A stretch of DNA of 59,784 bases from Patescibacteria group bacterium (GCA_022709715.1 JAKLIH010000002.1:1-59784), one strand, 5' to 3'; counted from the first letter of the stretch, positions 19,358 through 59,102 are shown. A program made the numbers and translations. The notes: generated by a model not told the origin, from the letters alone.

Positions 19358-19386
19358 GTGTTTTTTGCGGTAGTATTTAGAAAAAT
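19358..19386 (+). promoter_or_regulatory. cassette promoter TTGACA-N17-TAGTAT
   Basis: ttgacaatgcgtgttttttgcggtagtat, followed by RBS aggagg. Confidence 0.5.
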
Positions 19387-19420
19387 AGATTAGAACTTTG
19401 GATTTGAAGGAGGGAAAATA

Positions 19421-19669
19421 ATGAAATCAGTTCAAAAAGGCAATGGTAAAGCTGGCCAGGTTGTTTGGATAAATAACGCTGATCTCGGTTTTCAGGAGAT
19501 GGAATGCCATTGCGGTAGGCCAGGACATGAAGAGTGCACGTGTTACGAGGAAGGTGTCTTAGCAACAATCAATGGCAAGGTGGTATTAATCAGAAAGTGC
19601 GTTTCTAACGAGATAGGGGTTTGTCTTGATTGGGAAAAATGCCATACAAACTTCCAAATACGTGAATGA
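19421..19669 (+). CDS. small Cys-rich protein (82 aa), no recognisable family
   Basis: Strong SD (gaaggaggg). GC-richer than surroundings. 7 Cys (..CHCGRPGHEECTCY..). Both Trp codons are TGG. Ends in TGA just before a terminator-like element. Confidence 0.55.
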   Translation: MKSVQKGNGKAGQVVWINNADLGFQEMECHCGRPGHEECTCYEEGVLATINGKVVLIRKCVSNEIGVCLDWEKCHTNFQIRE

Positions 19670-19775
19670 CGAAACATGGTTTCTTATCGAAAGGACACCG
19701 GCAATCGGCCAGGCCCTTTTTTATTTTAATTTATTTAGGGTGTGGCAGTGAAGAATAGAACTTGCTGTTTTGGTG

Positions 19776-19804
19776 TTGACAGGATAATTAACTTGTGTTA
19801 GTAT
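19776..19804 (+). promoter_or_regulatory. cassette promoter TTGACA-N17-TAGTAT
   Basis: ttgacaggataattaacttgtgttagtat. Confidence 0.5.
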
Positions 19805-19863
19805 TCTATTAATTATGTTCTTTGGAAAATATAATTAAAATTATTTTAAGGGGGAAAAGTTAG

Positions 19864-20925
19864 ATGAACTGCTTAATAATTAATCCTGGTTCTAGTGATC
19901 CGAAGTCTGTGAAAATTTCAAAGTTAACTGGATTGCCAACAGATCCGTTGGCTATTCCAATTATAATAAATTTTCCTGATTTTCCAAGTGGTATTTCTTA
20001 TTGCGAAGCGGCGAAATTGCTTGTGCCAGTTTTACAAGACTATATGCTAAATACAGATTTTATTTTGTTTCGCTGTCCAGCTTTTAATTTCAATGTGTTA
20101 GGAATAACACAATTGACAGAAGAGTTAGCAGAAAATTTTTCAAGTAAAATTGCCATTCAACATGGATCGGAAATTGGTTTTTGGCTTGCTTATGAGTTGA
20201 CGCAAATTTACAAAATACCCGCAGTTTTTAGTAGAGGAATTCCGACTAGTAGATTGCCTGATTATGCAACCATAACTGGCCATCCAAACATAAAAAAAAC
20301 CTGCATGTCTCATTGGGAGGCAGTAGAGGGAGTTGCACATCATGTCGCTACGAAAGAAAAGCCAGTTTCTGAAGTCGAGTTTATTTTAATAATGCTCGGA
20401 AGTGGAACGGGCATTTATCTTTGGGAGAAGCCAGGAGCTATTTCTGCTTTCAAAATCCGCCAATGGGAAGGGCCAATGAGTCCTTCGAGTATTGGCGGGC
20501 TTGATACTTTGGCTTTGCTTGATTTTATGTTAAGCCAGGGAGAAACATCTTTGAAAGAAGCTCGAAAAAAAATAAGTGCACTCGTCGGTAGTAAAGGAGG
20601 ATTTCAATTATTTGATCCTCGCTGGCTAGACTTGCGTGAGTTTCGGAAAGATGTGGAAAATTTTCATCCTTTAGCAACTTCTCTTTTTGAAGCCTGGATT
20701 ATTCAGATTTCTGGGAAGGTTGGAGAAGTAAAACTCTCTATGAAACAACCAAAGCAACCAACTCCTGTTTACTTTTATGGAGGTGGATCTAATTGGCCTG
20801 AATTGGTTAGTAGAATTTCTGATAGATTGAGTGAACATTTGTTTCTCAATCCAGAAGTTATTACTATCGATCCAGAAAATGAGTTTTTTATTTCCCAAGC
20901 TATCGAATTTTCGAAATCTTTGTAA
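19864..20925 (+). CDS. divergent butyrate-kinase-like (ASKHA superfamily) protein
   Basis: 353 aa. CLIINPGSSDPK vs Buk ILxINPGSTSTK; ..ITGHPNIKK..; ..MLGSGTGI..; ..GPMSPSSIGG..; ..YGGGSNWPELV... 7 Trp, all TGG, and no TGA. SD aaggggg. Confidence 0.6.
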   Translation: MNCLIINPGSSDPKSVKISKLTGLPTDPLAIPIIINFPDFPSGISYCEAAKLLVPVLQDYMLNTDFILFRCPAFNFNVLGITQLTEELAENFSSKIAIQHGSEIGFWLAYELTQIYKIPAVFSRGIPTSRLPDYATITGHPNIKKTCMSHWEAVEGVAHHVATKEKPVSEVEFILIMLGSGTGIYLWEKPGAISAFKIRQWEGPMSPSSIGGLDTLALLDFMLSQGETSLKEARKKISALVGSKGGFQLFDPRWLDLREFRKDVENFHPLATSLFEAWIIQISGKVGEVKLSMKQPKQPTPVYFYGGGSNWPELVSRISDRLSEHLFLNPEVITIDPENEFFISQAIEFSKSL

Positions 20926-20951
20926 TAATTTTAACTGGAATTGAACAACAG

Positions 20952-20980
20952 GGAGCCCTTTTTTTAAAAGGGCTCCACTT
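20952..20980 (+). terminator. rho-independent terminator
   Basis: ggagcccttttt..aaaagggctcc hairpin. Confidence 0.65.
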
Positions 20981-21057
20981 TATTTTCTAATAAAAATGCG
21001 TTTTTGGTTTTGGTTTAAAAATATGATATAATAAATATATAACAAAAATGTTAAAAT

Positions 21058-21486
21058 ATGATAGTTTATACTTTTAAAAATTTTCCTTATATAAATGAAT
21101 TATCTAATACAAAAGTTGTAATATTTGAAAAATTAAATAAGGATATAGAAGCTTTTTGTCAAACAATAATTAAAATAAAGCCAAATTTTATTTTAGGAAT
21201 TGCTAGATCGGAAGAAAAATATTCTATAGTAGAAAAATATACTATTAATAAATTTCATGGTAATAAAAAAGTAATATCAAACGCTCGTGATAAATATGAA
21301 CTGTTTATCCCTAACGAAATTAGAAAATATTGTATTATACGAGAAAAGGCTACTGAATCGTTTTGTAATTTAAGCGTATTTAAGATTAAGAATTTTTTGA
21401 TAAATAACGATTTAGATATACCGTTTTCTTTTATTCATGTGACGCAAAATGATATAGTTAAAATCATGAATATCCTTAATAAATAA
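21058..21486 (+). CDS. short pyroglutamyl-peptidase I (C15)-like protein
   Basis: 142 aa. Aligns by eye to the Pcp core with Glu (IVEKYTIN), Cys (ESFCN) and His (FIHV) in order. Shorter than canonical Pcp (about 215 aa). Confidence 0.45.
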   Translation: MIVYTFKNFPYINELSNTKVVIFEKLNKDIEAFCQTIIKIKPNFILGIARSEEKYSIVEKYTINKFHGNKKVISNARDKYELFIPNEIRKYCIIREKATESFCNLSVFKIKNFLINNDLDIPFSFIHVTQNDIVKIMNILNK

Positions 21487-21503
21487 TAATTTAATAATTT
21501 GCT

Positions 21504-22469
21504 ATGATAAATATTTTAGAAAGTACAAAATATGTAGTAGACAATTCTGTTTTTGTTAAAATTAACAAACAAAATTTAGAAAACATTGCTGCTAAAATTA
21601 AAGAAAATAATATTAATTCTAATCTTTTTGTTGTGGAGGAATCTTTTAAACATTTAAATACAGAGCAAATATTGGCTTATAATGTCATTTATAATGCAAT
21701 TAATTTTTGTTTTTGGGGCAATCCAAAATGAGAAATAGAATTTAATGGTAAAAATTATGGCGGAAGTGTTGGCTTAGTAAAATGTTTTGCCAGGGCTTTA
21801 GAAAATAATATTGATATTTTAAACCCAGAATATTTAAAAAATATGACAGAAGATCAATTTGAAATATTAACAAAAGGAAATGTTATGATACCATTAGCTA
21901 ATGAACGATTAAAACAATTAAATGTTTTAGGAAAATTGATAATAGAAAAATTTGATGGCAAATTTATTAATATTTTTGAGAAAGGTGAATACAATGCTTT
22001 AAAAATTACAGATGTATTAGTAGAAGATTTAAAAGAAGTATTTTGTGATGAAAGTATGTATGATAATAAAAAAGTAGCATTTTATAAAAGGGCTCAAATA
22101 GTTTCTGTTATGATAGACGATTTTGTTCAATCAAATATTGCAAAATTTCAAATTACTGGGTTGGAAAAATTAACAGCTTTAGCTGACTATAAAATACCTC
22201 AAATTTTAAGAGAGTTTGAGATATTAAAATATAACGATGATTTAGCTGATCGAATAGATAAAGGAATATTAATAGCTCAGGATAGTCAAGAAGAAGTAGA
22301 AATTAGAGCTAATACGGTTTGGTCAATTGAATTATTAAAAGAATTATTGATCAAGGAATATCCAAATATTATGTCTGTTCAAATAGATAAAACTTTATGG
22401 CTAATGAGTCGCAAGTTTAATAAAGAGAGTGTTAAACCTTATCATAAAACGATAACAACTGCTTATTAA
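21504..22469 (+). CDS. queuosine-salvage family protein (DUF2419/Qng1-like)
   Basis: Two same-frame pieces joined by TGA at 21729. Motifs INFCFWG, FYKRAQI, ADYKIPQILR and C-terminal ..TTAY. Confidence 0.65.
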
Positions 22470-22577
22470 ACAACTCATTAAAACACCACTTGAAAGATGG
22501 TGTTTTTGCATTTGTATAAATGCTATAAAAATGATATAATTTGTATGTATAAATGATATAGTTTGTAAACTCATAAT

Positions 22578-23426
22578 ATGAAAATTATAATATTAGGTAA
22601 TGGAGCATGAGGATCAGCAATTTTTTCAGTTGTTTCTAAAAAGAATAAAGATGTTTCGTACTGAGACGAAAAGAATAAAATTGAATTAGCCGATGTTTAT
22701 ATAGTTTGTTTACCAGTTCAAGTGATGAGAAATGCATTGAAAAGAGCAAAATTTGATAATAATAAAAAAATAATTATTATTAATGGTAGTAAAGGAATAG
22801 AAAGAAAAACTAATAAATTACCTTATGAAATTATTAAAGAAGCAATATTATGCGATTTTGATTATTATAATTTAATCGGCCCTAGTTTTTCAATGGAAGT
22901 AAAAGATAAAAAACCTACAATTGTAAATATAGGATATAAAGAAAGATGTAATCGCAAATTAATAAAAGAATTATTGGTAACAAATTATTTTAGAATAAAA
23001 TTTACTAAAGGTGTTAAAGAATTAGAATTGTCTAGTGCTTTGAAAAATGTATATGCCATTGCTTGTGGAATATGTGATGGTCTTGGTTATAGATATAATA
23101 CTAGAATATTAATTATTAGTACGGCAATAGTTGAATTATATAAAATAATTAATCTTAAAAGGACTGGTATTATTGGTACAATTGGAGATTTAATTTTGAC
23201 CTGTAGTAGTAATGAAAGCCGTAATTTTAAATTTGGACAATTAATAACTAAATACAAAGTAGAAGAAGCTTTAAAAAGAATAGGAGCAACGGTGGAAGGA
23301 TTAGGAACGGTTGATTCCGTTAAAATGTTTAATAAACCATTATTAAATTTTGTTGATGATGTTATTAAAACCGATAATCCTAAAAAAATTAAATGTAAAT
23401 TTGATGAGTTTTTAAATAAATTATAA
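22578..23426 (+). CDS. gpsA: NAD(P)H-dependent glycerol-3-phosphate dehydrogenase
   Basis: MKIIILGNGA-TGA-GSA (the 'GAWG' dinucleotide-binding motif with Trp as TGA), GPSF..EV, KNVYAIACGI and GDLILTC..ESRN. Confidence 0.8.
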
Positions 23427-23427
23427 C

Positions 23428-24030
23428 ATGGAATATACTATTAATGATGAAAAATTAAGACAAATAAAAGATGAAGTTTTGCTTTGTAAACATTGTGATT
23501 TATATAAAGGTAGAAATGGTAATGAATTTTATCCAGTGATTGGGGAAGGTAACCATGAAGCTAATATTATGTTTGTGGGCGAAGCCCCAGGTTTACAAGA
23601 AGCCAAAACCGGGAGACCATTTTGTGGTCGAGCTGGTAAGATATTGAGTGAACTTTTGATGTCAATTAATATTAAAAGAGAAGATGTTTATATTGCTAAT
23701 TTACTTAAATGTCGTCCACCGGATAATCGCGATCCATTGCCAAATGAAATTCAGATTTGTACACATTTTGTAGAAAGACAGATTGAGATTATTAAACCAA
23801 AAGTGATTTGTCCCCTGGGGAGATATTCGATGAAATTTTTAATGGAGAAATTTGGTTTAGGTGAGAAGGTAGATGGCATTAGTAAAATTCATGGTCAAAT
23901 GTTTAAGAGCGGTACAGATTTTAAAGAGATTGTGATTATTCCATTTTACCATCCGGCGGTAGTAGCCTATAATCCATCAATGAAAAAAATATTATTAGAA
24001 GATATAAAAATTTTAGAAAAATTTAAATAA
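23428..24030 (+). CDS. uracil-DNA glycosylase, family 4
   Basis: CKHCDL..., [18 protein letters not shown]...GRPF.GRAG motifs. Confidence 0.8.
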
Positions 24031-24099
24031 TTTTTTGAAATTGGCTTTAAAATATTTAAATTATATTAAATCTATAATAAACTAATTAAATAATTAACC

Positions 24100-25329: not shown

Positions 25330-25494
25330 ACTATAAAATTAATCACAACGGTAATTAGTACCGTTGTGATTATCAAATCTAGTATATTTTGATTAATATT
25401 TTCATATTTTACTTAGATTTTGACTGGTGTGATTTAACAAATTGTATAAATTATGGAAATTTGATATAATTGTAATAATATTAATTTGGTTAAT

Positions 25495-26781: not shown

Positions 26782-26786
26782 ATTAT

Positions 26787-27914: not shown

Positions 27915-27916
27915 CT

Positions 27917-28447: not shown

Positions 28448-28637
28448 ATTTTAATCATAGTTTTTAGAGAGCGTATCTTAAAGAAGAATATTTGCAAATA
28501 GAATTTGATTTTCAAAATATTAGTGTGCTTGATTTATATAATAAATATCTTAACCTAATAAATACTTTTCTCAAAAATAGAATTGAAATTGTAAATCAAT
28601 TAAAAATTAATTTAAAAAATAAAAAATAAATATACTG

Positions 28638-28665
28638 TTGATTTTTGAGGTAATTATGTTAATAT
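28638..28665 (+). promoter_or_regulatory. cassette promoter TTGATT-N16-TAATAT
   Basis: ttgatttttgaggtaattatgttaatat, then RBS gaaaggagatgaataATG. Confidence 0.45.
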
Positions 28666-28697
28666 ATGGTTAGAAATTTATAGAAAGGAGATGAATA

Positions 28698-29003
28698 ATG
28701 CCATTAGCAATATTTATTAAGCCACGAGCCGAGGATTTAGAAATGCAAAGAATTTGGCGATTATTAAAAAATAATCCACCAATTTATGGTAAAACTATAA
28801 TTCATCGTTGGTATTATGGTGGGTATGTGCATATTTCTTGTGCTTTTCAATGCAAAGTTGAATCATTACTCAATATTGTTTCAGAGCATGATTTAGAAAT
28901 TTGGCTCAAAATATCTGTGAAACAGTTAAAACAGCAAAATTTTATTAATTTTTCTATGGAACAAGTTATGGTGATAACCAATGATAATGAACCAATTGCT
29001 TAA
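28698..29003 (+). CDS. hypothetical protein (101 aa), cassette gene
   Basis: Strong SD. 3 Trp, all TGG, and no TGA. Own terminator. The 5' UTR and start are nearly identical to those of 31528. Confidence 0.5.
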   Translation: MPLAIFIKPRAEDLEMQRIWRLLKNNPPIYGKTIIHRWYYGGYVHISCAFQCKVESLLNIVSEHDLEIWLKISVKQLKQQNFINFSMEQVMVITNDNEPIA

Positions 29004-29004
29004 A

Positions 29005-29034
29005 AGCGGGAATGAAAATCACTCTCGCTTTTTT
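29005..29034 (+). terminator. rho-independent terminator
   Basis: agcggga..tctcgct hairpin plus tttttt. Confidence 0.6.
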
Positions 29035-29074
29035 GATGTTTTTTTGATAGAATGGACTAGTAAAACAGAATATT

Positions 29075-31021
29075 ATGGAAAAGGAAAAAGAATTTTTAAT
29101 TTTAAATGTTACCCCCTATTTTTTAGAAAGGGATGAAGTTTGATTTAAAAAAAATGAAACAAAGTTAAAAAATGCAATTAAAAGACAATCGTGATGAGGT
29201 GACAAAGGATTATTAATTTATCAAGGCCAAAAAATTGTTCAATCTACTTTAATTAAAGCGATTAATGATTTAAATTTTGAAAAAGTTGATTTTGTAAGAT
29301 TTAAAGGTGAATATAGCGTTCGAGGCAATATTGTTGATATTTTTACAATCAATTATCTAAAACCAATTAGAATTGAATTTGTGTCAAACTATGTTTCGGA
29401 TGTTGATTTTATGGAAGTTAGAGAAATAGAGCCAGAGTATATTAAAAAAAGAGAAAAATTGTTGAAACATTTGCCAGAGCTCAAAGGTTTAAGAGATGGT
29501 GATTATGTGGTTCATATTGATCATGGCATCGGCATTTTTAGAGGTTTTTTTGAAGAAAATGAACAAAAGTATTTTGATATTGAATATGCGCCACCTAGTA
29601 ATAGCAATAATCCGGATAGATTGCTGGTGCCACTGGATAAGAGTGAAAAATTAAATTTATATTATGGGTTTGATAAACCAACCATTCATCGATTATCAAC
29701 TCAAACTTGGTTTAATACTAAGAAAAAAGTTAAAGAAGATTTAATTAAATTAGCAGGTGAACTTTTAAGGTTATATGCTAAGGTAAATTTAGCTAAAGCG
29801 CCAAAACTTGAAAAAGACGACTATTTAGAAGAAGAATTTAGAAAAACATTTGACTATTCAGAAACACCTGATCAAGAAAAAGCTATTGATGAAGTTTTAA
29901 GTGATTTAGAAAAAGACGAGCCAATGGACAGATTGGTTTTAGGTGATGTTGGTTTTGGCAAGACCGAAGTGGCACTGCGGGCATCTTTTCGATCAGTAAT
30001 AAATAAAAAACAAGTAATTGTATTGGCGCCTACAACTATTTTGGCTAAGCAGCATTTTGAAAATTTTTCCGAAAGAATGAAAAAATTTGATATAAAAATA
30101 GCCATGCTATCGCGTATGCAAAAACCAAAGGAAGTAAAAACAATATTACAAAATTTAAAAAATGGGAAAATAGATATTGTGATTGGCACTCATAAATTAC
30201 TTGGAAAGGCAATTACTTTTAAAGATTTAGGACTATTGATTATTGATGAAGAGCAAAGATTTGGGGTCAAACAAAAAGAAAAATTGAGGAGCAATTATGA
30301 AAATGTTCATATTTTAAATTTATCCGCTACACCAATTCCAAGAACTTTAAATATGGCATTGTCCGGTTTTAAAAAAATATCAAACATTTTAACTCCGCCA
30401 ATTAATCGCCAGGAAATACAAACTTATATTTTACCTTATAAAGATGATTTGGTGGTGAACGCTATTTCGGATGAAATAAAACGAGGTGGTCAAGTTTTCT
30501 ATATTCATAATAGAGTGGCTAATATTTATAATGAAGTAGTGAGATTACAAAAACTATTGCCAAAGGTGTCGATTGAATTTTTGCATGGTAGATTGTCTGA
30601 AAACCAAATATTAAAAGTTATGGATGATTTTAAAAATAATAAAATTCAAGTTTTGGTAACTACGGTAATTGTTGAAAATGGTTTGGATTTAAGTAATGTA
30701 AATACTTTGATTGTGGATGATGCAACTCGGTTTGGTTTATCACAATCCTATCAACTTCGAGGTAGAATCGGACGAGGAATAACTAAGGCCTATGCTTACT
30801 TTTTATATAATAAAGATTTGAAAGATAAAGCCAAACAAAGATTGGAAGCATTGAAAGAAGCAAATTATTTGGGAGCAGGGTATCAAATTGCTATGAAAGA
30901 TTTAGAATTACGTGGTTCAGGAAATATATTGGGCAAAGAACAATCAGGAAATATTAATAAAATAGGTCTTAATTTGTATTGTCAAATGTTGAATGAGACA
31001 ATGGAGGCATTAAATACGTAA
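29075..31021 (+). CDS. mfd: Mfd-like transcription-repair coupling factor lacking the UvrB-homology N-terminus
   Basis: The N-terminal piece joins ORF 29381 in frame via TGA codons. CarD/TRCF-like domain (DYVVHIDHGIG.F), SF2 helicase motifs (GDVGFGKTEVA, DEEQRFG, SATPIPRT, QLRGRIGR). Confidence 0.75.
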
Positions 31022-31222
31022 ATAGTAATTAGTAAGTAGTAATAAAAAGAGTAAATAGTAATTAGTAATGAAAAGAGTAATTAGTAAAAATGTAATATTC
31101 TAATAATCTTATTATTGTATTTTCTTTTTTACTATTGTCTTCCCATCGTCTTACCATTGTTTTACTGCTGTATTCCAGTTGTTTTCCTAATTACTAATTA
31201 TCATTTGTCAATTACTCTTTCT
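31022..31222. repeat. inverted pair of heptamer arrays with no ORF between them
   Basis: Forward GTAA words at 31022-31095 abut the mfd stop. Reverse-orientation words (..cctaattactaattatcatttgtcaattactc..) at 31128-31222. Confidence 0.7.
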
Positions 31223-31288: not shown

Positions 31289-31359
31289 AGGGGCATAGTT
31301 CAATGGTAGAATAGCGGTCTCCAAAACCGTGGATCCCCGTTCGAATCGAGGTGCCCCTG
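31289..31359 (+). tRNA. tRNA-Trp (anticodon CCA)
   Basis: aggggca..tgcccct acceptor, G73, anticodon loop ct-CCA-aa (31321-31323). Paralogous to the tRNA at 18597. Confidence 0.9.
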
Positions 31360-31418
31360 CCTCCGGCAGGCAGGCCTGCCTACGGTAGGTAAACCTGCCT
31401 TTGGCAGGCAGGCCTGCA
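31356..31418. repeat. three tandem type-B GC palindromes (cctgcc-N3/4-ggcagg) starting inside the tRNA 3' end
   Basis: cctgcctccggcagg / cctgcctacggtagg / cctgcctttggcagg, followed by caggcctgcaaac as after the tRNA at 18669. Confidence 0.75.
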
Positions 31419-31456
31419 AACAGAAAACATCATCTGAAAAGATGGTGTTTTTTGGT

Positions 31457-31485
31457 TTGACAAAAGATATTTATTGTGTTAATGT
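31457..31485 (+). promoter_or_regulatory. cassette promoter TTGACA-N17-TAATGT
   Basis: ttgacaaaagatatttattgtgttaatgt, then RBS taaggagatgaaatATG. Confidence 0.5.
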
Positions 31486-31527
31486 TTTTTTAGAAAATTC
31501 AACAATTTATATATAAGGAGATGAAAT

Positions 31528-32370
31528 ATGCCATTAAAAGAAGATTTATTAAAAATATATGACTTGGTTAGTCATTTTTCAGAAGGATTAGCTGCAGTTA
31601 AACAGGGCGAGAAATATTTTCACATTAAACCTGACGGCGCTCCTGCGTATGAAGAAAGGTTTGATTGGGTCCTTCATTTTTCAGAAGGATTAGCTTTAGT
31701 AAAACAAGCAAACCAATGTTTTCATATCAAGCCTGACGGTGTCCCTGCTTATGAAGAAAGGTTTAACAGTGTTCGTTCTTTTTCAGAAGGATTAGCTGCA
31801 GTTAAACAGGGCAAGAAATGTTTTCACATTAAACATGATGGTACCCCTGCTTACGAAGAAAGGTTTGATGATTCTGCGTCTTTCTTAGAAGGATTGGCTG
31901 CTGTTAAACAATTTGGACAATGGTTTCATATCAGACCTGATGGGACCTCTGCTTACGAAGAAAGGTTTGGTAGGGTTGAATCTTTCTTTGAAGGAGTAGC
32001 TGCAGCAGAACAAGATGGAGAACGTTTTCATATTCAACGTGATGGTACCCCTGCTTACAAAGAAACGTTTGACTTGGTTAGTTATTTTTCAGAAGGGTTG
32101 GCAAGTGTTAAACAAGGCAAGATATGGTTTCACATTAAACATGATGGTACCTCTGCTTACGAAGAAAGGTTTGACTGGGTTAGTTCTTTTTCAGAAGGAT
32201 TAGCTGCAGTTAAACAAGGCAAGATATGGTTTCACATTAAACATGATGGTACCCCTGCTTACGAAGAAAGGTTTGATGTTGTTCAATGTTTTGTAAAAGG
32301 GTTGGCTGTGGTTAAACAAAATAGGAAATGGTTTCATATCAAATTTGATGGTACTCCTGTTCAAAAATAA
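31528..32370 (+). CDS. WG/KWG-type repeat protein (8 repeats of about 34 aa)
   Basis: Repeating unit FSEGLAAVKQG.K.FHIK.DGTPAYEERFD.V. DNA repeats are nearly identical in places. 6 Trp, all TGG, and no TGA. Confidence 0.7.
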   Translation: MPLKEDLLKIYDLVSHFSEGLAAVKQGEKYFHIKPDGAPAYEERFDWVLHFSEGLALVKQANQCFHIKPDGVPAYEERFNSVRSFSEGLAAVKQGKKCFHIKHDGTPAYEERFDDSASFLEGLAAVKQFGQWFHIRPDGTSAYEERFGRVESFFEGVAAAEQDGERFHIQRDGTPAYKETFDLVSYFSEGLASVKQGKIWFHIKHDGTSAYEERFDWVSSFSEGLAAVKQGKIWFHIKHDGTPAYEERFDVVQCFVKGLAVVKQNRKWFHIKFDGTPVQK

Positions 32371-32509
32371 AAGTGAAGATAGCAAAAAAGGACACCGGCG
32401 ATCGGCCAGGACCTTTTTTATTTTAGTTTAACAACATCAATTATATTTTCTATGAAGAAAGTTATGGCTTTGTCTAGCCACCCCTGCCTTCGGCAGGGGT
32501 GGCATGCAT

Positions 32510-32538
32510 TTGACTTATGAATGAAAATATGTTACAAT
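32510..32538 (+). promoter_or_regulatory. cassette promoter TTGACT-N17-TACAAT
   Basis: ttgacttatgaatgaaaatatgttacaat. Confidence 0.5.
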
Positions 32539-32603
32539 GTAAATAACTTGTTTTTTTGTTCTTTCTAAATATATGCCGGCGGGCTAATACGCAAAGGAGA
32601 CAA

Positions 32604-32762
32604 ATGAAAAATATAAAAGTAACAAAGAGGGGAAATGATTATCATGCCTGTTTAGTTGAACAACCTGATATTTGGGGTTGTGGTAGAAGCATCGATGAGG
32701 CTATCGGTGATTTAATTAGAAATCATCAAGATACATTTGATATTACGATACACGAATGGTGA
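32604..32762 (+). CDS. small HicB/UPF0150-like protein (52 aa)
   Basis: SD aaaggagac before ATG 32604. ..YHACLVEQPDIWGCGRSIDEAIGDLI.. resembles the HicB-type antitoxin N-domain. Ends ..TGG TGA just before the terminator. No HicA partner seen. Confidence 0.45.
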   Translation: MKNIKVTKRGNDYHACLVEQPDIWGCGRSIDEAIGDLIRNHQDTFDITIHEW

Positions 32763-32788
32763 TTTATACTGGGCATTTGTAGCATAAT

Positions 32789-32815
32789 GGAACAGGGAAA
32801 ACCTGTTCCTTTTTT
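32789..32815 (+). terminator. rho-independent terminator
   Basis: ggaacagg-gaaaa-cctgttcc plus tttttt. Confidence 0.7.
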
Positions 32816-32896
32816 ATTTAGCGATTAATATATAACTTGAATATTTTGGGTAAATTTGATAGAGTATGGGTGTTAATAAAAAATTAATAATTTGCT

Positions 32897-33397: not shown

Positions 33398-33592
33398 ATG
33401 GGGATTTTTAGAAAAATTAAGAATGTTTTTAAAGAAGCATTTTTGGAATTAAAAAAAGTGCATTGACCAACCAAAAAGGAAGCTAGAGTTTTAACTGGTG
33501 CTGTGCTTGTGATTACAATTTTTTATGCTTTGCTATTAACAAGTATGGATTTTGGTTTGGCAGAATTATTAAAAATTATTATTATTAAATAA
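33398..33592 (+). CDS. secE: preprotein translocase subunit SecE
   Basis: 64 aa, ..ELKKVH-TGA-PTKKEA.. plus one TM helix. Immediately upstream of nusG. Confidence 0.75.
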
Positions 33593-33597
33593 CTTTT

Positions 33598-34146
33598 ATG
33601 GCTCGTCAGGAATTAGATTTAGGTAAAAATTGATATGTGCTTCACACTTCACCGGGTTATGAAGAAGCCGTGGCTAAAAATTTGAAATCAAGAATCGAAG
33701 CTTTTGATTTAGCTGATAAAGTTTTTGATGTTTTGGTACCAATAGAAAAGAAAATTAAAATTAAATCGGGTAAACGTCAAACGGTGGAAGAAAAGATTTT
33801 TCCTGGTTATGTGTTTGTGGAAATGTTGGTGGATGATACTTCTTGATATGTGGTGCGTAATACTCCACATGTAACTGGATTTATCGGTGCGGGAACAACT
33901 CCACTACCAGTGGATCAAGGCGAAATGAATATTATTTTTCAACGAATTGGAGGAGCGGAACCACATTATAAAATTAATTTTGATATTAAAGAAAGAGTAA
34001 AAATTACTGATGGCCCGTTTAAAGATTTTGAAGGTGTGATTGAAGAAATTGATAATGAAAAAGGTCGGATTAAAGTTTCAGTTGGTATTTTTGGCAGAGA
34101 AACTCCAGTTGATGTTGATTTCTTACAAATAAGTAAATTATCTTAA
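33598..34146 (+). CDS. nusG: transcription termination/antitermination factor NusG
   Basis: ..KN-TGA-YVLHT.PGYE.., KOW motif. Three same-frame pieces. Confidence 0.9.
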
Positions 34147-34170
34147 TAACTAGAAAATAAAAATTATATT

Positions 34171-34596
34171 ATGGCAGAAAAGAAAATAAAAGCACAAATT
34201 AAATTAGAAATTGCCGCTGGGGCCGCTAATCCAGCTCCACCCGTTGGTCCAGCTTTGGGACAACACGGTGTTAATATTCAAGAGTTTTGTTCAGCTTTTA
34301 ATGCTCAAACTCAAGAAAAAAAGGGAGATATTATTCCTGTAGAAATTACTGTTTATGAAGACAGAACTTTTTCTTTGGTTTTTAAAGAACCACCAGTAGC
34401 TAGCTTAATTTTAAAAATGGCTAATATCCAAAAAGGATCAGCTAATCCACTAGAAAAGAAAGTCGCCAAAATTACTAAAGATCAAGCTAGAGAAATTGCT
34501 CAAAGAAAAATGGTTGATCTTAATGCTAATGATATTGATGCAGCCGTTAAAATTGTTGAAGGCACAGCTAGAAGTATGGGGATAGAAGTACAATAG
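34171..34596 (+). CDS. rplK: 50S ribosomal protein L11
   Basis: ..[26 protein letters not shown].. is a canonical L11 sequence. Confidence 0.95.
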
Positions 34597-34790
34597 AAAA
34601 TCAAAGAGTAAGTGGTAAAAAGTAATTAGTAATTAAAAGAGTGAATAGTAATAAAAAGAGAAAAGAGTAATACAATAGTAAAACAATTGTAAAGCAGTAG
34701 TAAGACAGTAGTAAAAGAAAGAGTAAAAAGTAAATAGTAATTGGTAAATAGTAAAAAGTAATAAAACAATATTCCAATATTCAATATTCA
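34597..34790 (+). repeat. long degenerate heptamer (GTAA-word) array abutting the rplK stop
   Basis: agtaaaa agtaaat agtaatt ggtaaat agtaaaa ... Followed by terminator aaccatgac..gtcgtggtttttt (34796-34828). Confidence 0.8.
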
Positions 34791-34889
34791 AAAACCAAAA
34801 AACCATGACAATTAAGTCGTGGTTTTTTGGTTGAATAAAAATTGCGATTATGTTATAATGTCTTTAATATCAAAAAATAAATATTTTTA

Positions 34890-36371
34890 ATGATTAGCGA
34901 AGAAATACGAAAAAAATATATGCCGACAATTGGCCTGGAAATTCATTTTGAGCCAAAAACCAAACATAAAATGTTTTGTAATTGTTTAAATGATCCCGAT
35001 GAAACTATTCCGAATAAAAATGTTTGTCCAATTTGTTTAGCTCATCCCGGAGCACTGCCAACAATTAATAAAGAAGCTATTGAGTCTATTTTAAAATTGG
35101 GTATGGCTCTTGATTGTACAATTCCAGAAGTGGCACGATTTGATAGGAAAAATTATTTTTATCCAGATTTACCAAAAAGTTATCAAATTACTCAAGCCTT
35201 TTTACCTTTTTGTCAAAATGGTAAGTTAACACCATTTTTAGAGGACAACATTGAAGAAGTGTTAATAAAGGAAATTCATTTAGAAGAAGATACTGGAAAA
35301 CTGTTGCATAATGGGGATAAAACTTTAATTGATTATAATCGAGCTTCTCGACCTTTGATTGAGCTCGTTACACAAGCTTGTATACATGATGGTAAGACCG
35401 CTCGGGTGTTTGCAGAAAGTTTACAAGTTATATTAAGAAGTTTAAATATTTCAGATGCGGATATGGAAAAAGGGCAAATGAGAGTTGAAGTGAATGTGTC
35501 GGTTAGTCAGGATGATAAATTAGGAACAAAAACAGAAGTCAAAAATATTAATTCCTTTAAATCAGCCGAGAAAGCAATTGATTATGAAATTGAAAGACAA
35601 ATTGAATTATTGGAAAAAGGTGAAAAGATTTTGCAAGAAACCAGAGGGTGAGACGATACAAACACATGCACAATATCTCAGCGTATTAAAGAAGGGGCTG
35701 ATGATTATCGATATTTTCCTGAACCCGATCTACCCAATATAATTGTACGTGGCGAAAATGGGATGTTTGATTTAGAAAAATTGAAAAATGATTTAGGCGA
35801 ACTACCAAACAATAAAAAGAATAGATTGATGAATGAATATGGTTTGATATCAAATAAAGCTACATTTTTGGTGGTTAATAATTTAATTAGTGATTTTTTT
35901 GAAAAAACTAACGTTGAATTAAAAATATTAATTGGTGATAATCTAGTGACTGATCAAACTGTTAATTTAATTTATAATTATTTAGTGACCGATATTTTGG
36001 GAGGATTAGTAAATAAAAATTTAACCTTTAATGATTTAAAAATTTCACCTATTGAATTTGCAAAATTAATTAAATTGTTAGTTGAGAATAAATTGTCATC
36101 AAGAGGTGCAAAAATTATTTTAGAAAAAATGCTGATGGGTGAAAAAGACCCAGAAACAATAATGAAAAATAATAATTTGGAGCAAGTTTCCAATGATGAA
36201 GAATTACAAAAAATGATTGAACTAGTTTTAAATGAAAATGATAAATCAGTTCAAGAATATAAATCGGGAAAAGTGACAGTACTGCAATTTTTAATTGGTA
36301 AAACTATGGCTAAAACCAAAGGATCGGGCAATCCGGAAAAAATAAAAGAATTACTAGAAAAAATGTTATAG
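34890..36371 (+). CDS. gatB: Asp/Glu-tRNA amidotransferase subunit B
   Basis: Two same-frame pieces joined by TGA at 35649, at the 'TRGWD' Trp. ..DYRYFPEPDLP.. Confidence 0.9.
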
Positions 36372-36417: not shown

Positions 36418-36516
36418 ACCCGCCACGACTAACCAAAGGTTAGTGTGGGCCTGCCTGCCGGTAGGCAGGGGCTAGCCCCGCTTCGCTCCACAACCAACCA
36501 GAGGTTGGTGTGGGGG
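36418..36516. repeat. cluster of GC-rich palindromes (types A and B)
   Basis: ccgccacgactaacc-aaa-ggttagtgtggg, gcctgcctgccggtaggcagggg, and ctccacaaccaacc-aga-ggttggtgtggggg. The 34-mer 36438..36471 is identical to 59179..59212. Confidence 0.8.
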
Positions 36517-48614: not shown

Positions 48615-48639
48615 AAAATAATTATTATAAATATTTTTT

Positions 48640-49548: not shown

Positions 49549-50613
<1,065 letters not shown>

Positions 50614-50624
50614 TTTTAAATAGT

Positions 50625-55290
<4,666 letters not shown>

Positions 55291-55296
55291 GATATT

Positions 55297-55365
55297 AAAT
55301 AGAAGAGCAAATAGTAAATAGTAAATAGTAATTGGTAATACAAATCAAAATCAATAACGCAAATC
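55297..55365 (+). repeat. heptamer array (GTAA then TCAAA words) abutting the gyrB stop
   Basis: aatagta aatagta aatagta attggta ... aaatcaa aatcaat .. Confidence 0.75.
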
Positions 55366-55398
55366 AAAAATGACCCGGCTTTTGGCTAGGTCATTTTT
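55366..55398. terminator. bidirectional terminator hairpin
   Basis: aaaaatgacc-N13-ggtcattttt. Overlaps the TAG stop of the minus-strand gene. Confidence 0.65.
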
Positions 55399-56117
55399 AT
55401 TCTGTGCTGTTTACAAAACTCTATAATGAGTTTTAATTTTTCGCAATCAATTTCCATTTCTTTTCCATTTTGGAAAGTGATTGTATTGTTTTCAATAATG
55501 TACGTGGAACGTTGTATTGGTTGTTGATTGTTGAGATGTTGCTCGGCGTCTTTTATTAAATTATGGAATGTTTCAGGGGACATCGGTGTGTGTTTAATTT
55601 CGATTATTACTATTTCTTTATTACGACGAATTCGTATATCAATTTCTGGGTTAATTGCATTGTATTCTGATTTTTCTTGCTGTGCAGTTGATTTGATTAT
55701 TCGTTCTTTCTTTGGTGTTGGATTTGTATCTTGTGACTTGACCAATGGTTTTTCTAGTTGTTTTTTTCGTGGTCTGCCACGTTTTTTGGGAACTAATTTT
55801 ATTTCTGGTTCTGGGGTTTGCGGTGGTTTTACTTCCAATTTTTGAGCTGCAGATGTTTCTGCAATTTGAATGCCTTCATTTAACAATAATTCGATTGATG
55901 CTATTTTTTTATCAGAAATAGTTATATCGTATTCGCATGCTAATATGTGGGTTGTTTTCCAATTATTCAAGTTTTCTTGATTTATAGGAATTATTGTTTG
56001 TTCATCAGGATTTTTGCAAGGATTATACACAATTATTGTCAATTTTTCAGGACCAAAAACTGCAACGAAATCGGTAGTATTAGATCTACCAACTATATCA
56101 CTAGACAGCATTTCCAC
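55386..56117 (-). CDS. AT-hook-containing two-domain protein, unknown function
   Basis: The only intact minus-strand gene in the window. 243 aa with a Pro/Lys-rich linker carrying KKRGRPRKK. No TGA. GC-richer than surroundings. Own promoter and terminator. Confidence 0.55.
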   Translation of the reverse strand: MEMLSSDIVGRSNTTDFVAVFGPEKLTIIVYNPCKNPDEQTIIPINQENLNNWKTTHILACEYDITISDKKIASIELLLNEGIQIAETSAAQKLEVKPPQTPEPEIKLVPKKRGRPRKKQLEKPLVKSQDTNPTPKKERIIKSTAQQEKSEYNAINPEIDIRIRRNKEIVIIEIKHTPMSPETFHNLIKDAEQHLNNQQPIQRSTYIIENNTITFQNGKEMEIDCEKLKLIIEFCKQHRIKMT

Positions 56118-56154
56118 TTTCTTCCTTTCTTTTTAAATGTGCTTGTTTAGTATA

Positions 56155-56183
56155 AGATTACATAATTTTTTATTGAATGTCAA
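56155..56183 (-). promoter_or_regulatory. cassette promoter TTGACA-N17-TAATCT (minus strand)
   Basis: The reverse complement reads ttgacattcaataaaaaattatgtaatct. Confidence 0.45.
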
Positions 56184-56225
56184 GTTGTAATAAACACTAT
56201 ATTTTGTTGTTTTTTGGATAAAATT

Positions 56226-56342
56226 ATGGTAAAATAATGAAATAAGGTAATATAATAGTAAGACAATAAAAAGAGTAATTGGTAAATGGTAATTAGTAAT
56301 ATGAAGAGTAAGAATAAAAAACAATGGTAAGACAATTGTAAA
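56226..56342 (+). repeat. heptamer (GTAA-word) array
   Basis: Contains 56268..56300, a 33-nt exact copy of 2846..2878. Same orientation as the array at 55297. Confidence 0.8.
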
Positions 56343-56362
56343 AAATAACTTAAAATATAAAA

Positions 56363-56650
56363 ATGATTGATGTAAATGAAATAGATCATTTGTTAGAGCT
56401 TTCAAGATTAGAAATTTCTAACGAAGAAAAAAATAATTTACAAGCCGATTTAGACAAGATTTTAAAATACATTGAAAAATTGTCGATTGTTGATACTGAA
56501 AATGTTGAGCCCATGACGGGGGGAACTTTTAATGTTAATGAATATAGAAAAGATACGTTTGAAAGTCGAGAATTTGATAGGAATAAAATTTTAGAAGCCA
56601 TTCCTAAGAAAGATAATGATTTTTTTGAAGTGCCAAAGATTTTTGGCTAA
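56363..56650 (+). CDS. gatC: Asp/Glu-tRNA amidotransferase subunit C
   Basis: 95 aa. ..LSRLEISNEEK..L..DL..IL.Y...L...DT..VEPM.. is the GatC pattern. Confidence 0.8.
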   Translation: MIDVNEIDHLLELSRLEISNEEKNNLQADLDKILKYIEKLSIVDTENVEPMTGGTFNVNEYRKDTFESREFDRNKILEAIPKKDNDFFEVPKIFG

Positions 56651-56676
56651 AATAAAAGATTTTAAAATAGATAATA

Positions 56677-58101
56677 ATGTTTAAAGATATTCAAGAAAAA
56701 ATAAAAAATAATGATATTAATTTGATTCAATCAATCGATGATTTTTTAAATAATTTTGATGAAAAAAATCAAGAAATAAATGCTTTTATTTCTAAAAATG
56801 ATGAAGTAAAGCAATTAGTTAAATTAAGCGAAGAAAGAATAAAGACCAATAAAAGTTTAATGCTGGATGGTATTAAAATTGCGATTAAAGATAATATTTT
56901 GGTAGAAGGATTATTATCAACAGCCGGATCAAAAATGTTAAAAGATTATCGAGCTAGTTATGATTCCACTGTAATTAAAAAAATTAAAGAAGCTGGTGGT
57001 TTGATTGTTGGCAAAACCAATATGGACGAATTTGCTATGGGGTCATCAAACGAAACATCGTATTTTGGTGTGGTTAGAAATCCAATTGATTTAAATAGAG
57101 TGCCGGGCGGATCATCGGGTGGATCAACTTCAGCTGTAGCTAGCGGTATGGTGGATGTAGCTTTAGGATCAGATACGGCTGGATCAATAAGACAACCAGC
57201 TAGTTTTTGTGGTGTGGTTGGTTTTAAGCCAACCTATGGAGCTGTTTCCAGATTTGGTTTAATAGCCATGAGTTCATCATTAGATGTGATTGGACCTATT
57301 GCAAAAAATGTAACCGATTGCGAATCAATTTTTAATATTATAGCTGGCAAAGATGATTATGATGCAACCAGTATTGATGTTTTAACTGAAGATAAAGAAT
57401 GAAATATTGATGATGTAAAGAAATTAACCATTGGCGTGCCCAAGGAATATTTTGTAGAGGGAATTAATGAGGAAGTAAAAGAAAATATAAATAATTTTGT
57501 TAGTAAATTAAAATCTTTGGGTGTTAATATTAAAGAAATTAGTTTAACTCATACTCAATATGCTATTCCTTGTTATTATATAATTATGCCAGCCGAAGTT
57601 AGTTCCAATTTGGCTAGATATGATAATATTCGTTATGGTAGCAAGGTAAATGATTTAAATATTTCTAATTTAAAAGATTTATATTTTAAAACTCGAGGTG
57701 ATGGCTTTGGACGAGAAGTAAAAAGAAGAATTTTATTAGGCACATATGTTTTGTCCAAAGGGTTTTATGATCAATATTATTCTAAAGCTCAAAAAGTCAG
57801 AAGGTTGATAAAACAAGATTTTGATCAAGCGTTTAAAGAAGTGGGTTTAATTTTGACGCCTACTTGTCCGGATGTGGCTTTTGCTTTTGGAGAAAAAAGC
57901 CAAGATCCAGTTTCAATGTATTTATCAGATATCTTTACGGTGCCAATGAATTTAGCTGGAATCCCAGCTATTAGCTTGCCTTTGACAAAAAATAAAGATG
58001 GTTTGCCTATTGGACTGCAATTAACTATGCAAGAAAAATTAGACAGAAGATTGTTAAAAATTAGTAAGGTTTTTGAATCACTAATAAATTATAATTCATA
58101 A
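56677..58101 (+). CDS. gatA: Asp/Glu-tRNA amidotransferase subunit A
   Basis: Amidase signature GGSSGGS..AVA....ALGSDTGGSIRQPA. Two same-frame pieces joined by TGA at 57400. Confidence 0.9.
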
Positions 58102-58105
58102 TCAT

Positions 58106-58669
58106 ATGGAAAGTTTAAATAATGCTTTGACATTAGTCGATTTACAAACAGCCGTTGGAATTATGGCGCCATTGTTTTTGCGTCAAACATTTTTAAATTT
58201 TTTATTTTGATCTAGAATTACTGGGTTAATTATAAGCTGTTTGATAGTGATGTTTATTATGATTGTTAAAATTAAAACCAAACAATTAAAAAAACCGAAA
58301 GTCGTAAAGGTGGGTGTAAGCGGTAAAGAAAAATGATCATTTTTAAATGAGTTCAAAATTAATTCAACATTTAAAAAAATTAGTGATTATATAAATTTTG
58401 AAAATATTTTATATTGAAAATTGGCTCTAGCTGAGATTGATAGTTATTTTAATAATGTTTTAACAGAAGTCGGTTTTAGAGGCGATACCATGACGGATAA
58501 ATTGACAAAATTATCTAAAATTTATTTATCTAATTTAGATGAAATTGCGTCTACCCATCTTAAAATTAATGAAATTTTGAATGATAATAATTATTTATTA
58601 ACTAAAGAAGAAACGGAAAAGTTAATTGATGTATATAAACAGGGAATAGAAGAATTAAAAAAATTGTAA
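58106..58669 (+). CDS. hypothetical membrane protein
   Basis: The ATG 58106 frame joins track ORF 58421 through 3 TGA codons. One or two TM helices. Confidence 0.45.
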
Positions 58670-58725
58670 TATTATTTAAAGATAGAAAACGGTCATAAAC
58701 TTTTAGTTTATGACCGTTTCTTGAT

Positions 58726-58901
58726 CCCCACACCCAGAAAGTTTAAGGTTAAAAATTATATTTTTAACCGAGGAACGTTAAGTTTGTTGCATAGTGTGTA
58801 TTTTAACTAGAATAATTAACCCCCACACCAACCAAAGGTTGGTGTGGGGGCATGCCTTTTAATATTACGTTTATCACTCAAAAACTTTGCTGGGTGTGGG
58901 G
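58726..58901. repeat. second copy of the MITE-like element, with a nested type-A palindrome
   Basis: ccccacacccagaaag.. ... ..aactttgctgggtgtgggg. The first 50 nt are about 85% identical by eye to 2897... The hairpin cccccacaccaacc-aaa-ggttggtgtggggg is nested at 58820-58850. Confidence 0.6.
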
Positions 58902-58902
58902 A

Positions 58903-58931
58903 TTGACATTCATTTATTTGTATGTTATTTT
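58903..58931 (+). promoter_or_regulatory. cassette promoter TTGACA-N17-TATTTT
   Basis: The -35 starts 1 nt after the MITE-like right end. RBS gaaaggagatgaaATG. Confidence 0.4.
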
Positions 58932-58951
58932 TGTTTTAGAAAGGAGATGAA

Positions 58952-59053
58952 ATGGAAAAATTCATCGAAAATTTTTTAACCATCATGTCTGTCTTAGAAG
59001 TCGCATGTATGACATGGATGGTTATCTCGGTGCTAATAGTAGTACTGAAATGA
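58952..59053 (+). CDS. 33-aa hydrophobic peptide (candidate small membrane protein or toxin)
   Basis: MEKFIENFLTIMSVLEVACMTWMVISVLIVVLK. Strong SD. TGA lies directly before the terminator hairpin. Confidence 0.3.
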   Translation: MEKFIENFLTIMSVLEVACMTWMVISVLIVVLK

Positions 59054-59056
59054 TTA

Positions 59057-59090
59057 GGTAATACTTTAGAAAATAAAGTATTACCTTTTT
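59057..59090 (+). terminator. rho-independent terminator
   Basis: ggtaatacttt-agaaaat-aaagtattacc plus ttttt. Confidence 0.65.
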
Positions 59091-59102
59091 AAAATTTGAT
59101 CC

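Follow-up and report, generated by a model that had tools for sequence, protein, structure and literature searches.

Seven small putative transcription units (U1 to U7) lie scattered across a 59.8-kb stretch of chromosome from a bacterium of the Patescibacteria class Minisyncoccia (GCA_022709715.1 JAKLIH010000002.1:1-59784). This stretch of 59,784 nucleotides, hereafter the window, has a GC content of 29% and carries nearly all of its genes on the plus strand. Its core genes comprise infC, rpmI, rplT, ligA, tyrS, recA, rpsF, ssb, prfA, rpsB and tsf, together with rarA, mfd, secE, nusG, rplK, gatCAB, ftsA, ftsZ and pheST, and pilin-like proteins with an N-terminal methylation motif are encoded at 1283-2818. 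A sequence-only reading of this DNA had described seven cassettes that look written in the standard genetic code inside a genome that translates UGA as tryptophan (Trp). All seven units were found where that reading had placed them (Table 1), and the reassigned code was borne out.

The code of the window is UGA=Trp, not UGA=Gly, on three grounds. Reading TGA as a sense codon raises the content of open reading frames (ORFs) of at least 100 amino acids (aa) from 14,757 to 23,184 aa, nearly a doubling; a tRNA-Trp(UCA) is encoded; and TGA occupies invariant Trp positions, including those in RarA 'ILWGPPG', GatB 'TRGWD' and PheS 'DMWDTFW'. Many core genes contain no TGG at all. The alternative TGA=Gly (translation table 25), known from other Patescibacteria, was rejected because TGA aligns with conserved Trp and the tRNA-Trp(UCA) is present. 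This tRNA also occurs in the sister loci L110 and L112, and in the window it has its acceptor stem and discriminator in common with tRNA-Trp(CCA).

The background recoding is already known, since a 2026 preprint on gTranslate describes it (10.64898/2026.05.24.727570). In its available text, the first UGA-to-Trp reassignments in Patescibacteriota are placed in the Minisyncoccia family JAKLIH01 and the genus GCA-2747955, and these code-4 lineages are of low GC, carry tRNA-Trp(UCA) and are without prfB. One of the code-4 genera is said there to retain code-11 members, a few congeners being standard-code, and the published genomes number 22 code-4 Minisyncoccia MAGs and 3 code-11 congeners (10.64898/2026.05.24.727570). 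Among the GTDB species representatives that we fetched with RarA there was no recoded relative: all 80 of 80 loci read well in the standard code, and the closest are Patescibacteria of at most 78% identity. Sister genomes were reached through GpsA homologs of 75-81% identity (L094, L101 and L103) and by other routes (L109-L113, L115 and L117). All of them use UGA=Trp, have 27-29% GC, and contain ordinary genes without a Shine-Dalgarno (SD) sequence.

Table 1. Coordinates, predicted signals and coding content of the seven units, with the two tRNA-Trp genes of the window.
Feature	Position	Strand	Signals and content	Source
tRNA-Trp(UCA)	18597..18671	+	decodes TGA as Trp	ARAGORN, Rfam
U1	19348..19728	+	promoter TTGACA-17-TAGTAT 19348-19376; SD GAAGGAGGG; terminator module 19690-19728	
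U1 ORF	19421-19669	+	82 aa, Cys-rich, 2 TGG, stop TGA; code 4 extends to 19729 through terminator	
U2	19776..20986	+	promoter TTGACA-17-TAGTAT with TG 19776-19804; SD AAGGGGGA; hairpin 20952-20976 and T-run	
U2 ORF	19864-20925	+	353 aa, remote butyrate-kinase/ASKHA relative, 7 TGG, stop TAA	
U3	28638..29045	+	promoter TTGATT-N16-TAATAT 28638-28665; SD AAAGGAGA; terminator 29002-29045	
U3 ORF	28698-29003	+	101 aa, 3 TGG, stop TAA	
tRNA-Trp(CCA)	31289..31361	+	TGG only; U4 and U5 directly downstream	ARAGORN, Rfam
U4	31457..32425	+	promoter TTGACA-17-TAATGT 31457-31485; SD AAGGAGA; terminator module 32387-32425 shared with U1	
U4 ORF	31528-32370	+	280 aa, WG-repeat, 102-nt tandem units, 6 TGG, stop TAA	
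U5	32510..32819	+	promoter TTGACT-17-TACAAT with TG 32510-32538; SD AAAGGAGA; hairpin 32789-32809 and T-run	
U5 ORF	32604-32762	+	52 aa, 2 TGG, stop TGA	
U6	55360..56183	-	promoter TTGACA-17-TAATCT 56183-56155; weaker SD GAAAGGAAG; terminator 55397-55360	
U6 ORF	56111-55386	-	241 aa, AT-hook-like RGRPRKK, 1 TGG, stop TAG; divergent beside gatC	
U7	58903..59090	+	promoter TTGACA-17-TATTTT with TG 58903-58931; SD AAAGGAGA; terminator 59056-59090	
U7 ORF	58952-59053	+	33 aa, hydrophobic, 1 TGG, stop TGA	

The units differ from the resident genes in the signals that precede their start codons. SD strength was scored as pairing with the 16S anti-SD over positions -20 to -3, and 54 ordinary plus-strand genes, with starts chosen automatically as the first ATG, served as the core set. 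The six plus-strand units have duplex energies of -8.7 to -12.2 kcal/mol and the minus-strand unit, U6, reaches -5.6, in agreement with the earlier description of six strong SDs and a weaker one. None of the 54 core genes attains -6 kcal/mol (the best has -3.3), so that the claim of core genes without an SD also stands. When every start codon in the window was scanned, strong intergenic SDs appeared at the six plus-strand units only.

The same units differ in how they write Trp. Core genes use 114 TGA and 29 TGG, or 80% of Trp as TGA, versus 22 TGG and no sense TGA in the seven units, of which the six in U4 sit in tandem repeats and hence are not independent observations; the sequence-only reading had counted about 22. 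Across twelve further NNA/NNG codon pairs, the third base is A in 75% of unit codons (368:120), a share like that in core genes, and this puts the chance of 22 consecutive TGG at about 0.25^22. For this reason TGG-only usage as a by-product of GC or codon bias was rejected. The GC content at third codon positions (GC3) is already near that of core genes in U3 to U6, and TGA is still at zero.

The ORFs of U1, U5 and U7 reach TGA as their first in-frame stop, right before the terminator, a feature that the sequence-only reading does not mention. Read in code 4, these three ORFs extend by 12 to 21 codons, through the hairpin and T-run. The description of the units as written in the standard code is thus supported by the lack of sense TGA, by three ORFs that end in TGA, and by SDs in a genome otherwise free of them. 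Other claimed hallmarks held in part. Higher GC applies to U1, U2 and U4 (0.38-0.43 vs 0.285 in core genes, standard deviation 0.036) and marginally to U5 and U7, while U3 (0.30) and U6 (0.32) are not outliers. A consensus TTGAC -35 box, proposed for every unit, is present in six; U3 has the core-type TTGATT. Core promoters are likewise sigma-70-like, and promoter-like matches overall show no excess over shuffled sequence in this AT-rich window. All seven units end in a hairpin and T-run, including U1 and U4, for which a shared 3' element had been described in place of a terminator. That shared module does exist (93% identity over 44 nt, with a 39-nt core); among the fetched loci its conserved core was found in same-species contigs only, and a slightly longer version had no match in IMG/VR. 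The 5' leader reported as common to three units, aaggagatgaaNNATGccatta, is of low information: it amounts to a generic SD-ATG-Pro-Leu string, and six unrelated phage contigs have it too. Thirteen loci from independently assembled samples (JGI, ENA and Logan) are 99-100% identical across the units, and this agreement excludes mis-assembly. Samples in which the organism is present include JGI 3300009776, 3300010429 and 3300037067, all from anaerobic digesters.

The association extends beyond the window. We pooled the window with eleven related code-4 loci, a set with some redundancy, as L112 overlaps or duplicates L109, L118 does so with L117, and L115 comes from the same sample as L094. In this pool, 17 SD-led ORFs contain 37 TGG and 5 TGA, against 328 TGA and 115 TGG in 150 non-SD ORFs (Fisher P 1.6e-15). 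Four of the five TGAs in SD-led ORFs stand at points where a standard-code ORF would end, and three of these four are close to real ORF ends; two spurious calls (L115 4255; window 58852, which overlaps U7) account for the fifth TGA and for one of the stop-like codons. The presence of an SD and the absence of TGA therefore coincide almost categorically. Of the 68 non-SD genes that have three or more Trp codons, two show an excess of TGG at P<0.02, about the number expected by chance, and a gradual series of amelioration was rejected, as half-ameliorated genes are not visible among the 68. What is new here is this clade-wide class of SD-led, TGA-free genes. By their predicted signals, its members form a distinct class of self-contained transcription units in the recoded clade, and as written they should be translatable throughout without tRNA-Trp(UCA), by SD-dependent initiation.

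Some members of the class appear to be old residents. A search of 5.8 billion proteins returned one homolog of U2, in the closest sister, L094, which is itself recoded. There the ortholog precedes gpsA by one or two genes, an arrangement shared with the window. The pair has 70% amino acid identity, a ratio of nonsynonymous to synonymous change (dN/dS) of 0.11 and a dS of about 2. At conserved Lys, Glu, Gln, Leu (TTR) and Arg (AGR) codons, the third positions of the two copies are both A at 21 sites, A and G at 25 and both G at 5; these states are statistically independent (expected AG 23, GG 6), and sites of the TGG/TGA type are consequently saturated. Trp is nevertheless written as TGG throughout, 7 times in one copy and 8 times in the other, with a chance of about 1e-7 given 66% A at such sites.

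U6, with 5 hits in a search of 1.8 billion representatives, has four relatives there, and the contigs that could be read (L113, L115 and L117/L118) are all recoded. In L113 and L115 the orthologs lie beside gatC on the opposite strand, and the L117 relative lies beside gyrB. Each relative has a TTGACA -35 box, a strong SD, a conserved box in the 5' untranslated region and a terminator, and the promoters in the window and L113 are nearly identical. The protein evolves fast, at about 36% identity versus 78% for GatA, and has so far been found in the recoded clade only. Counting each distinct sequence once, U6 and its relatives have 5 TGG, at differing positions, and 0 TGA. U7 lies downstream of the 187-aa gene next after gatA, and at this site L113 and L115 also have a small hydrophobic ORF led by an SD (72 aa and 2 TGG in L113; 93 aa, 4 TGG and a TGA end in L115); the proteins at the site are not clearly homologous across species. 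Judged by these shared positions, U2, U6 and the U7 site are evidently not recent. Further, the codon comparisons indicate that the inherited members are under purifying selection and have stayed TGA-free despite saturated synonymous change.

Other units are confined to one species. In L094, L101 and L103 the genes that flank U3 abut, with no U3 between them, and in L103 an amidase gene with three sense TGA codons and no SD occupies the place downstream of tRNA-Trp(CCA) where U4 and U5 sit. Given their absence at orthologous sister sites, U3, U4 and U5 are by this comparison species-specific insertions at variable intergenic sites, a pattern that fits horizontal acquisition. U1 is probably another such insertion, as L094 has a different small Cys-rich cassette, TGA-terminated, in that relative position. 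The earlier suggestion of recent import thus fits U3, U4, U5 and probably U1, and fails for U2, U6 and the U7 site; syntenic conservation, which that reading had named as evidence against import, was found for the latter three and not for U3, U4 and U5. In both species (window 19421-20925; L094 9499-11056), a small Cys-rich, SD-led, TGA-stopped ORF stands directly upstream of the U2 kinase-like gene, and the two may form a functional pair. U1 and the L094 Cys-rich protein have no significant similarity (E 0.07).

Further support for import comes from the TGA stops, the direct repeats flanking U7 and the precedent of L106, a standard-code Patescibacteria contig of 40% GC whose core genes are without SD. 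L106 holds a U4-like WG-repeat lipoprotein gene with a strong SD (-10.3) and its own promoter and terminator, bracketed by direct repeats of about 280 nt (4628-4900 and 6150-6430), and this gene looks like a recent Campbell-type or repeat-mediated insertion. Low SD use with an SD-led minority is general in related standard-code Patescibacteria. Among the matches listed, those closest to U4 have 40-46% identity. For U2, U4 (among the matches listed) and U6, donor-lineage relatives closer than recipient-lineage ones were not found.

The sequence-only reading had confidently assigned no unit to a family of known function and had proposed profile and structure searches on each ORF. These placed U4 and, remotely, U2, and left five without a family. 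U4 is a WG-repeat protein that matches PF14903 above the gathering score (134.8 bits, E 9e-40, six stretches), with weak repeat matches to two PHROGs of unknown function. U2 scores 84.7 and 70.8 bits against NF002834 and TIGR02707, far below their cut-offs of 222 and 289, and is consequently a remote ASKHA relative and not a bona fide butyrate kinase; its match to PDB 1x9j (E 4e-10) covers residues 100-296 only. U1, U3, U5, U6 and U7 had no match in Pfam, NCBIfam, PADLOC or PHROGs, none of the seven units matched the PADLOC models of anti-phage defence, and the SD-led ORFs of the sister genomes had no match in the family-library search. The AlphaFold2 model of U5 is a beta-beta-alpha-beta fold (pLDDT 79) without a PDB match at E<0.8, and a HicB-like antitoxin fold found no match in Pfam, NCBIfam or PADLOC; the U3 model (pLDDT 59) is too poor for a fold search. 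In phage and IMG/VR collections the U1, U3, U5 and U6 proteins had no matches. Six chance matches to the SD-ATG-CCATTA leader were the sole result there, and phage origin of the units is accordingly not supported.

Several repeat families share the intergenic regions with the units. Two GC-rich palindrome families, CCCCACACCAACCAAAGGTTGGTGTGGGG and CCTGCC..CGG..CAGG, resemble repetitive extragenic palindromes and cluster in a few places (3238-3266, 36420-36449, 36488-36516, 58821-58849 and 59129-59157; also 3170-3200, 18685-18700, 31355-31420, 32483-32506, 36449-36475 and 59190-59215). As integron attC sites, the flanking palindromes have no R''/R' core sites. Integron gene cassettes were rejected as an identity for the units, which carry promoters; attC sites and an integrase were not seen in the window, where an ISNCY-like transposase fragment at the right end is the sole gene of that kind. 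Likewise, a motif of about 60 nt, AAGAAAGTTnTAACTTnnTCTAG, was rejected as a cassette boundary or att site, being conserved intergenically in sister genomes without cassettes. Its core occurs in the window at 19250-19305 and 32425-32480, in L094 at 8103, 8523 and 9349, in L101 at about 3200-3265 and in L109-L112, with conservation at the nucleotide level across sister species. The motif often stands upstream of a hairpin and a TTTGCAAAAG..TGGTATAAT promoter, and the genes driven differ between species.

Direct repeats of 59 nt stand on either side of U7 (58808-58866 and 59116-59174), and the unit adjoins an element that resembles a miniature inverted-repeat transposable element (MITE). The MITE-like element is present in two copies (2898-3039 and 58726-58901) with terminal inverted repeats of 16-17 nt, CCCCACACCCAGAAAG ... 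CTTTGCTGGGTGTGGGG; the second copy carries an inserted palindrome, and the U7 promoter begins 2 nt past its right end. Degenerate heptad-like repeats (GTAATTA/GTAAATA/GTAAGTA...) form intergenic tracts in both orientations at 2794-3158, 8316-8393, 8763-8825, 31017-31220, 34601-34793, 55302-55377 and 56270-56345, and two of these tracts flank U6. An inverted pair brackets a '23S rRNA IVP' four-helix-bundle gene (8402-8761), one of two 'four-helix-bundle / 23S rRNA intervening sequence' genes; the other, at 18220-18543, lies directly upstream of tRNA-Trp(UCA). A small indel in a same-species contig coincides with three 19-nt units that follow tRNA-Trp(CCA) in tandem. The U1-U2 block is flanked by genes for a GNAT acetyltransferase (18785-19264) and for Q-salvage (21504-22469), both of low GC and without SD; with 3 TGG and 1 TGA apiece they invert the core ratio, in too few codons to call.

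Elsewhere in the window, at 33398-36371, secE-nusG-rplK is followed by gatB and not by rplA-rplJ-rplL-rpoB, with a heptad-repeat tract at the junction. A LAGLIDADG-like protein gene (16987-17784) adjoins a tRNA-Thr/Tyr/Thr cluster. At the right edge, 59276-59784, lies a fragment of a minus-strand transposase-like ORF, ISNCY-like by eye, and a reverse-transcriptase gene is found about 1 kb to the left of the window's first base (L002 1-149). The sister locus L115 contains a pair of RVT_1 and bAvd genes resembling a diversity-generating retroelement (6686-8325).

We tentatively explain these observations by a self-sufficient, SD-led and TGA-free gene class that was imported in part and then kept TGA-free by selection, an explanation that we regard as the best overall and to which we would assign a probability of roughly 40%. 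Each unit would combine a sigma-70 promoter, an SD, a single ORF and an intrinsic terminator inside a genome whose ordinary genes lack an SD and have about 75-80% of their Trp codons as TGA. New members would arrive horizontally from standard-code, SD-using donors. Transfer from the standard code into UGA=Trp should be harmless, because standard-code ORFs are read correctly and only TGA stops run through into the terminator. Selection would then purge sense TGA from resident members, as is suggested by U2 and U6, which stay TGA-free and keep an SD across saturating divergence. Recent import would consequently account for a part of the class only, with TGA avoidance apparently being maintained. 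The weakest step is the benefit. We speculate that the units remain expressible when UGA decoding is unavailable or attacked, for example when tRNA-Trp(UCA) is low, or when a phage supplies release factor 2 (RF2) or a tRNA nuclease. Recoded phages whose early genes suit the standard code would follow the same logic, and a regulon gated by a rare codon and its tRNA would be its inverse. Our analysis favours such an intrinsic reason for staying readable in the standard code, by analogy with those phages and with the SD-led rpsU of Bacteroidia, since the searches turned up no standard-code relative of either U2 or U6.

Several points weigh against this explanation. The benefit of independence from UGA decoding is pure inference. 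The TGA-terminated ORFs are not explained; because there is no stop without RF2, they would run into the terminator and possibly off the end of the mRNA. These ORFs, all without clear orthologs, may simply be recent arrivals. The U2 evidence is a single ortholog pair, its dS of about 2 is higher than in neighbouring core genes (1.15-1.37), GC3 is 0.27-0.28 in both copies vs 0.11-0.21 in core genes, and upstream synteny differs between the window and L094, so U2 could in principle have been acquired twice. For U6, conservation amounts to five Trp codons only. SD-led minority genes are not peculiar to the recoded clade, the same being found in standard-code Patescibacteria, and no 16S anti-SD, bS21 or prfB of this organism was seen. 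A more ambitious proposal, that the units form a second 'dialect', a selected small regulon that is SD-dependent, TGA-free and translatable independently of the UGA-decoding tRNA, is possible and strikes us as doubtful. If it were true, dialect genes could be made when UGA decoding is off or sabotaged, or even in a standard-code partner cell, and the dialect would be a cellular counterpart of code-partitioned phage genomes.

Plain import without further constraint would have all seven units come from standard-code, SD-using donors, with their signature as unerased leftovers and the sister copies as separate acquisitions at common insertion hot spots. The absence of U3, U4 and U5 from orthologous sister sites, the higher GC of U1, U2 and U4, the TGA stops of three ORFs and the proximity of units to tRNA-Trp genes and repeat clusters would all be expected, as would U2 codon usage like that of a genome of about 40% GC such as L106 (NNA 0.66-0.67, GC3 0.28), a U2 dS above core genes, and proteins without clear homology across species at the U7 site. 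We consider it unlikely all the same, as U6 is clearly vertical, with the same place and signals in at least three species and still with an SD and TGG only. Donor-side homologs were not found for U2 (2 hits among 5.8 billion proteins, both from recoded genomes) or U6, the 68 non-SD genes include no partly ameliorated intermediates, and U3 to U6 have a GC3 already near that of core genes and yet no TGA. The sequence-only reading had offered another possibility, in which the units are code-neutral mobile cargo that can be expressed in both codes. On this view they would circulate between UGA=Trp and standard-code kin, with natural transformation as one conceivable route. A sense TGA would be fatal to half of the hosts and so be purged, and promoter, SD and terminator would travel together. 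This correctly predicts that TGA avoidance is maintained and that units are self-contained, and makes TGA stops natural; close standard-code kin exist in the form of code-11 members of a published code-4 genus, as reported in the available preprint text, a similar SD-led WG-repeat cassette with flanking direct repeats is present in the standard-code L106, and a ComEC-type competence gene in L113 and the pilin-like proteins of the window are in keeping with it. Use in both codes is unproven, because all examined relatives of U2 and U6 are in recoded genomes, and the nearest standard-code GpsA relatives, at 54-58% identity, are too distant for homologous exchange at syntenic sites. With no recombinase, att site or vector identified, we judge such shuttling to be decidedly unlikely.

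Two further explanations carry little weight. The units might be genes for another cell, expressed in a standard-code partner or victim after transfer, with run-through of TGA into the terminator keeping products such as the U7 peptide harmless in the producer. Such a role would account jointly for the TTGAC-type -35 boxes, the SDs, the lack of sense TGA and the TGA stops before terminators, as well as for fast protein evolution (U6 36% vs GatA 78%). It is very improbable. Transfer machinery and border sequences were not seen, bacterial promoters would fail in methanogenic archaea such as those that cultured Minisyncoccia parasitise, core promoters are sigma-70-like too, and we know of no bacterial precedent for expressing genes in another cell in this way. 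That five of seven ORFs have no detectable family and several are short might invite the suspicion that the units are mis-assembled foreign reads or non-genes, and their codon pattern a sampling accident. This is refuted, and its probability is negligible: 13 independently assembled loci are identical, the codon pattern has P ~1e-13 to 1e-15, U2 has a dN/dS of 0.11, U4 matches PF14903 at E 9e-40, and U6 has orthologs.

The usual picture of codon reassignment is of a change that affects the whole genome and hinders gene flow, and the units bear on both notions. Flow from the standard code into UGA=Trp would be permissive, leaving a countable signature of SD, TGG-only usage and TGA stops, and the long retention of this signature by some genes points to selection on the dialect. 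If confirmed genome-wide, the pattern could provide a handle on how recoded cells regulate or protect translation and on how SD-dependent and SD-independent initiation coexist in Patescibacteria, as well as a way to date and trace gene transfer in a recently recoded lineage. In practical terms, table-4 gene callers will overextend such ORFs past their true TGA ends.

Partial likenesses to the units can be found in several known systems. Phage morons and small horizontally acquired islets are single genes with their own promoter and terminator, often of atypical composition and variable presence. The units, too, are single genes with their own promoter and terminator between resident genes; here, however, the host is no phage, three units are conserved and TGA-free in sisters, and vector and donor have not been identified. 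Integron cassettes, too, are small, hold one gene each, vary in function and occupy recombination hot spots, but they are promoterless and have attC sites and an integrase nearby, whereas the units carry promoters, and attC sites and an integrase were not seen in the window. In the bldA/TTA regulon of Streptomyces, the availability of one tRNA decides which genes are translated. A few genes depend on the tRNA there, whereas here it would be needed by nearly all, with a few left independent of it.

The lineages of the gTranslate preprint belong to the same phylum and class and likewise have low GC, tRNA-Trp(UCA) and TGA at conserved Trp; the available text of that preprint describes the code change only, and a TGA-free, SD-led class is not mentioned in it (10.64898/2026.05.24.727570). 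Bacteroidia offer another example of few strong-SD genes in a non-SD genome, as their SD-blind genome contains an SD-led rpsU that works under a special ribosome state (PMC7797042, PMC9976891). That case concerns one autoregulated ribosomal gene and an anti-SD sequestered by bS21/bS18/bS6, unlike the orphan accessory genes found here, which are known from sequence. Recoded phages, finally, split one genome into genes that avoid and genes that freely use the reassigned codon (Borges et al., 10.1101/2021.08.26.457843). Their compatible set is translatable without the suppressor tRNA, just as the units would be without tRNA-Trp(UCA). In that case the genome belongs to a phage whose host uses the standard code, and its genes are partitioned along the infection programme, whereas here the chromosome is permanently recoded, and the compatible set is a small minority that is also marked by its SDs.

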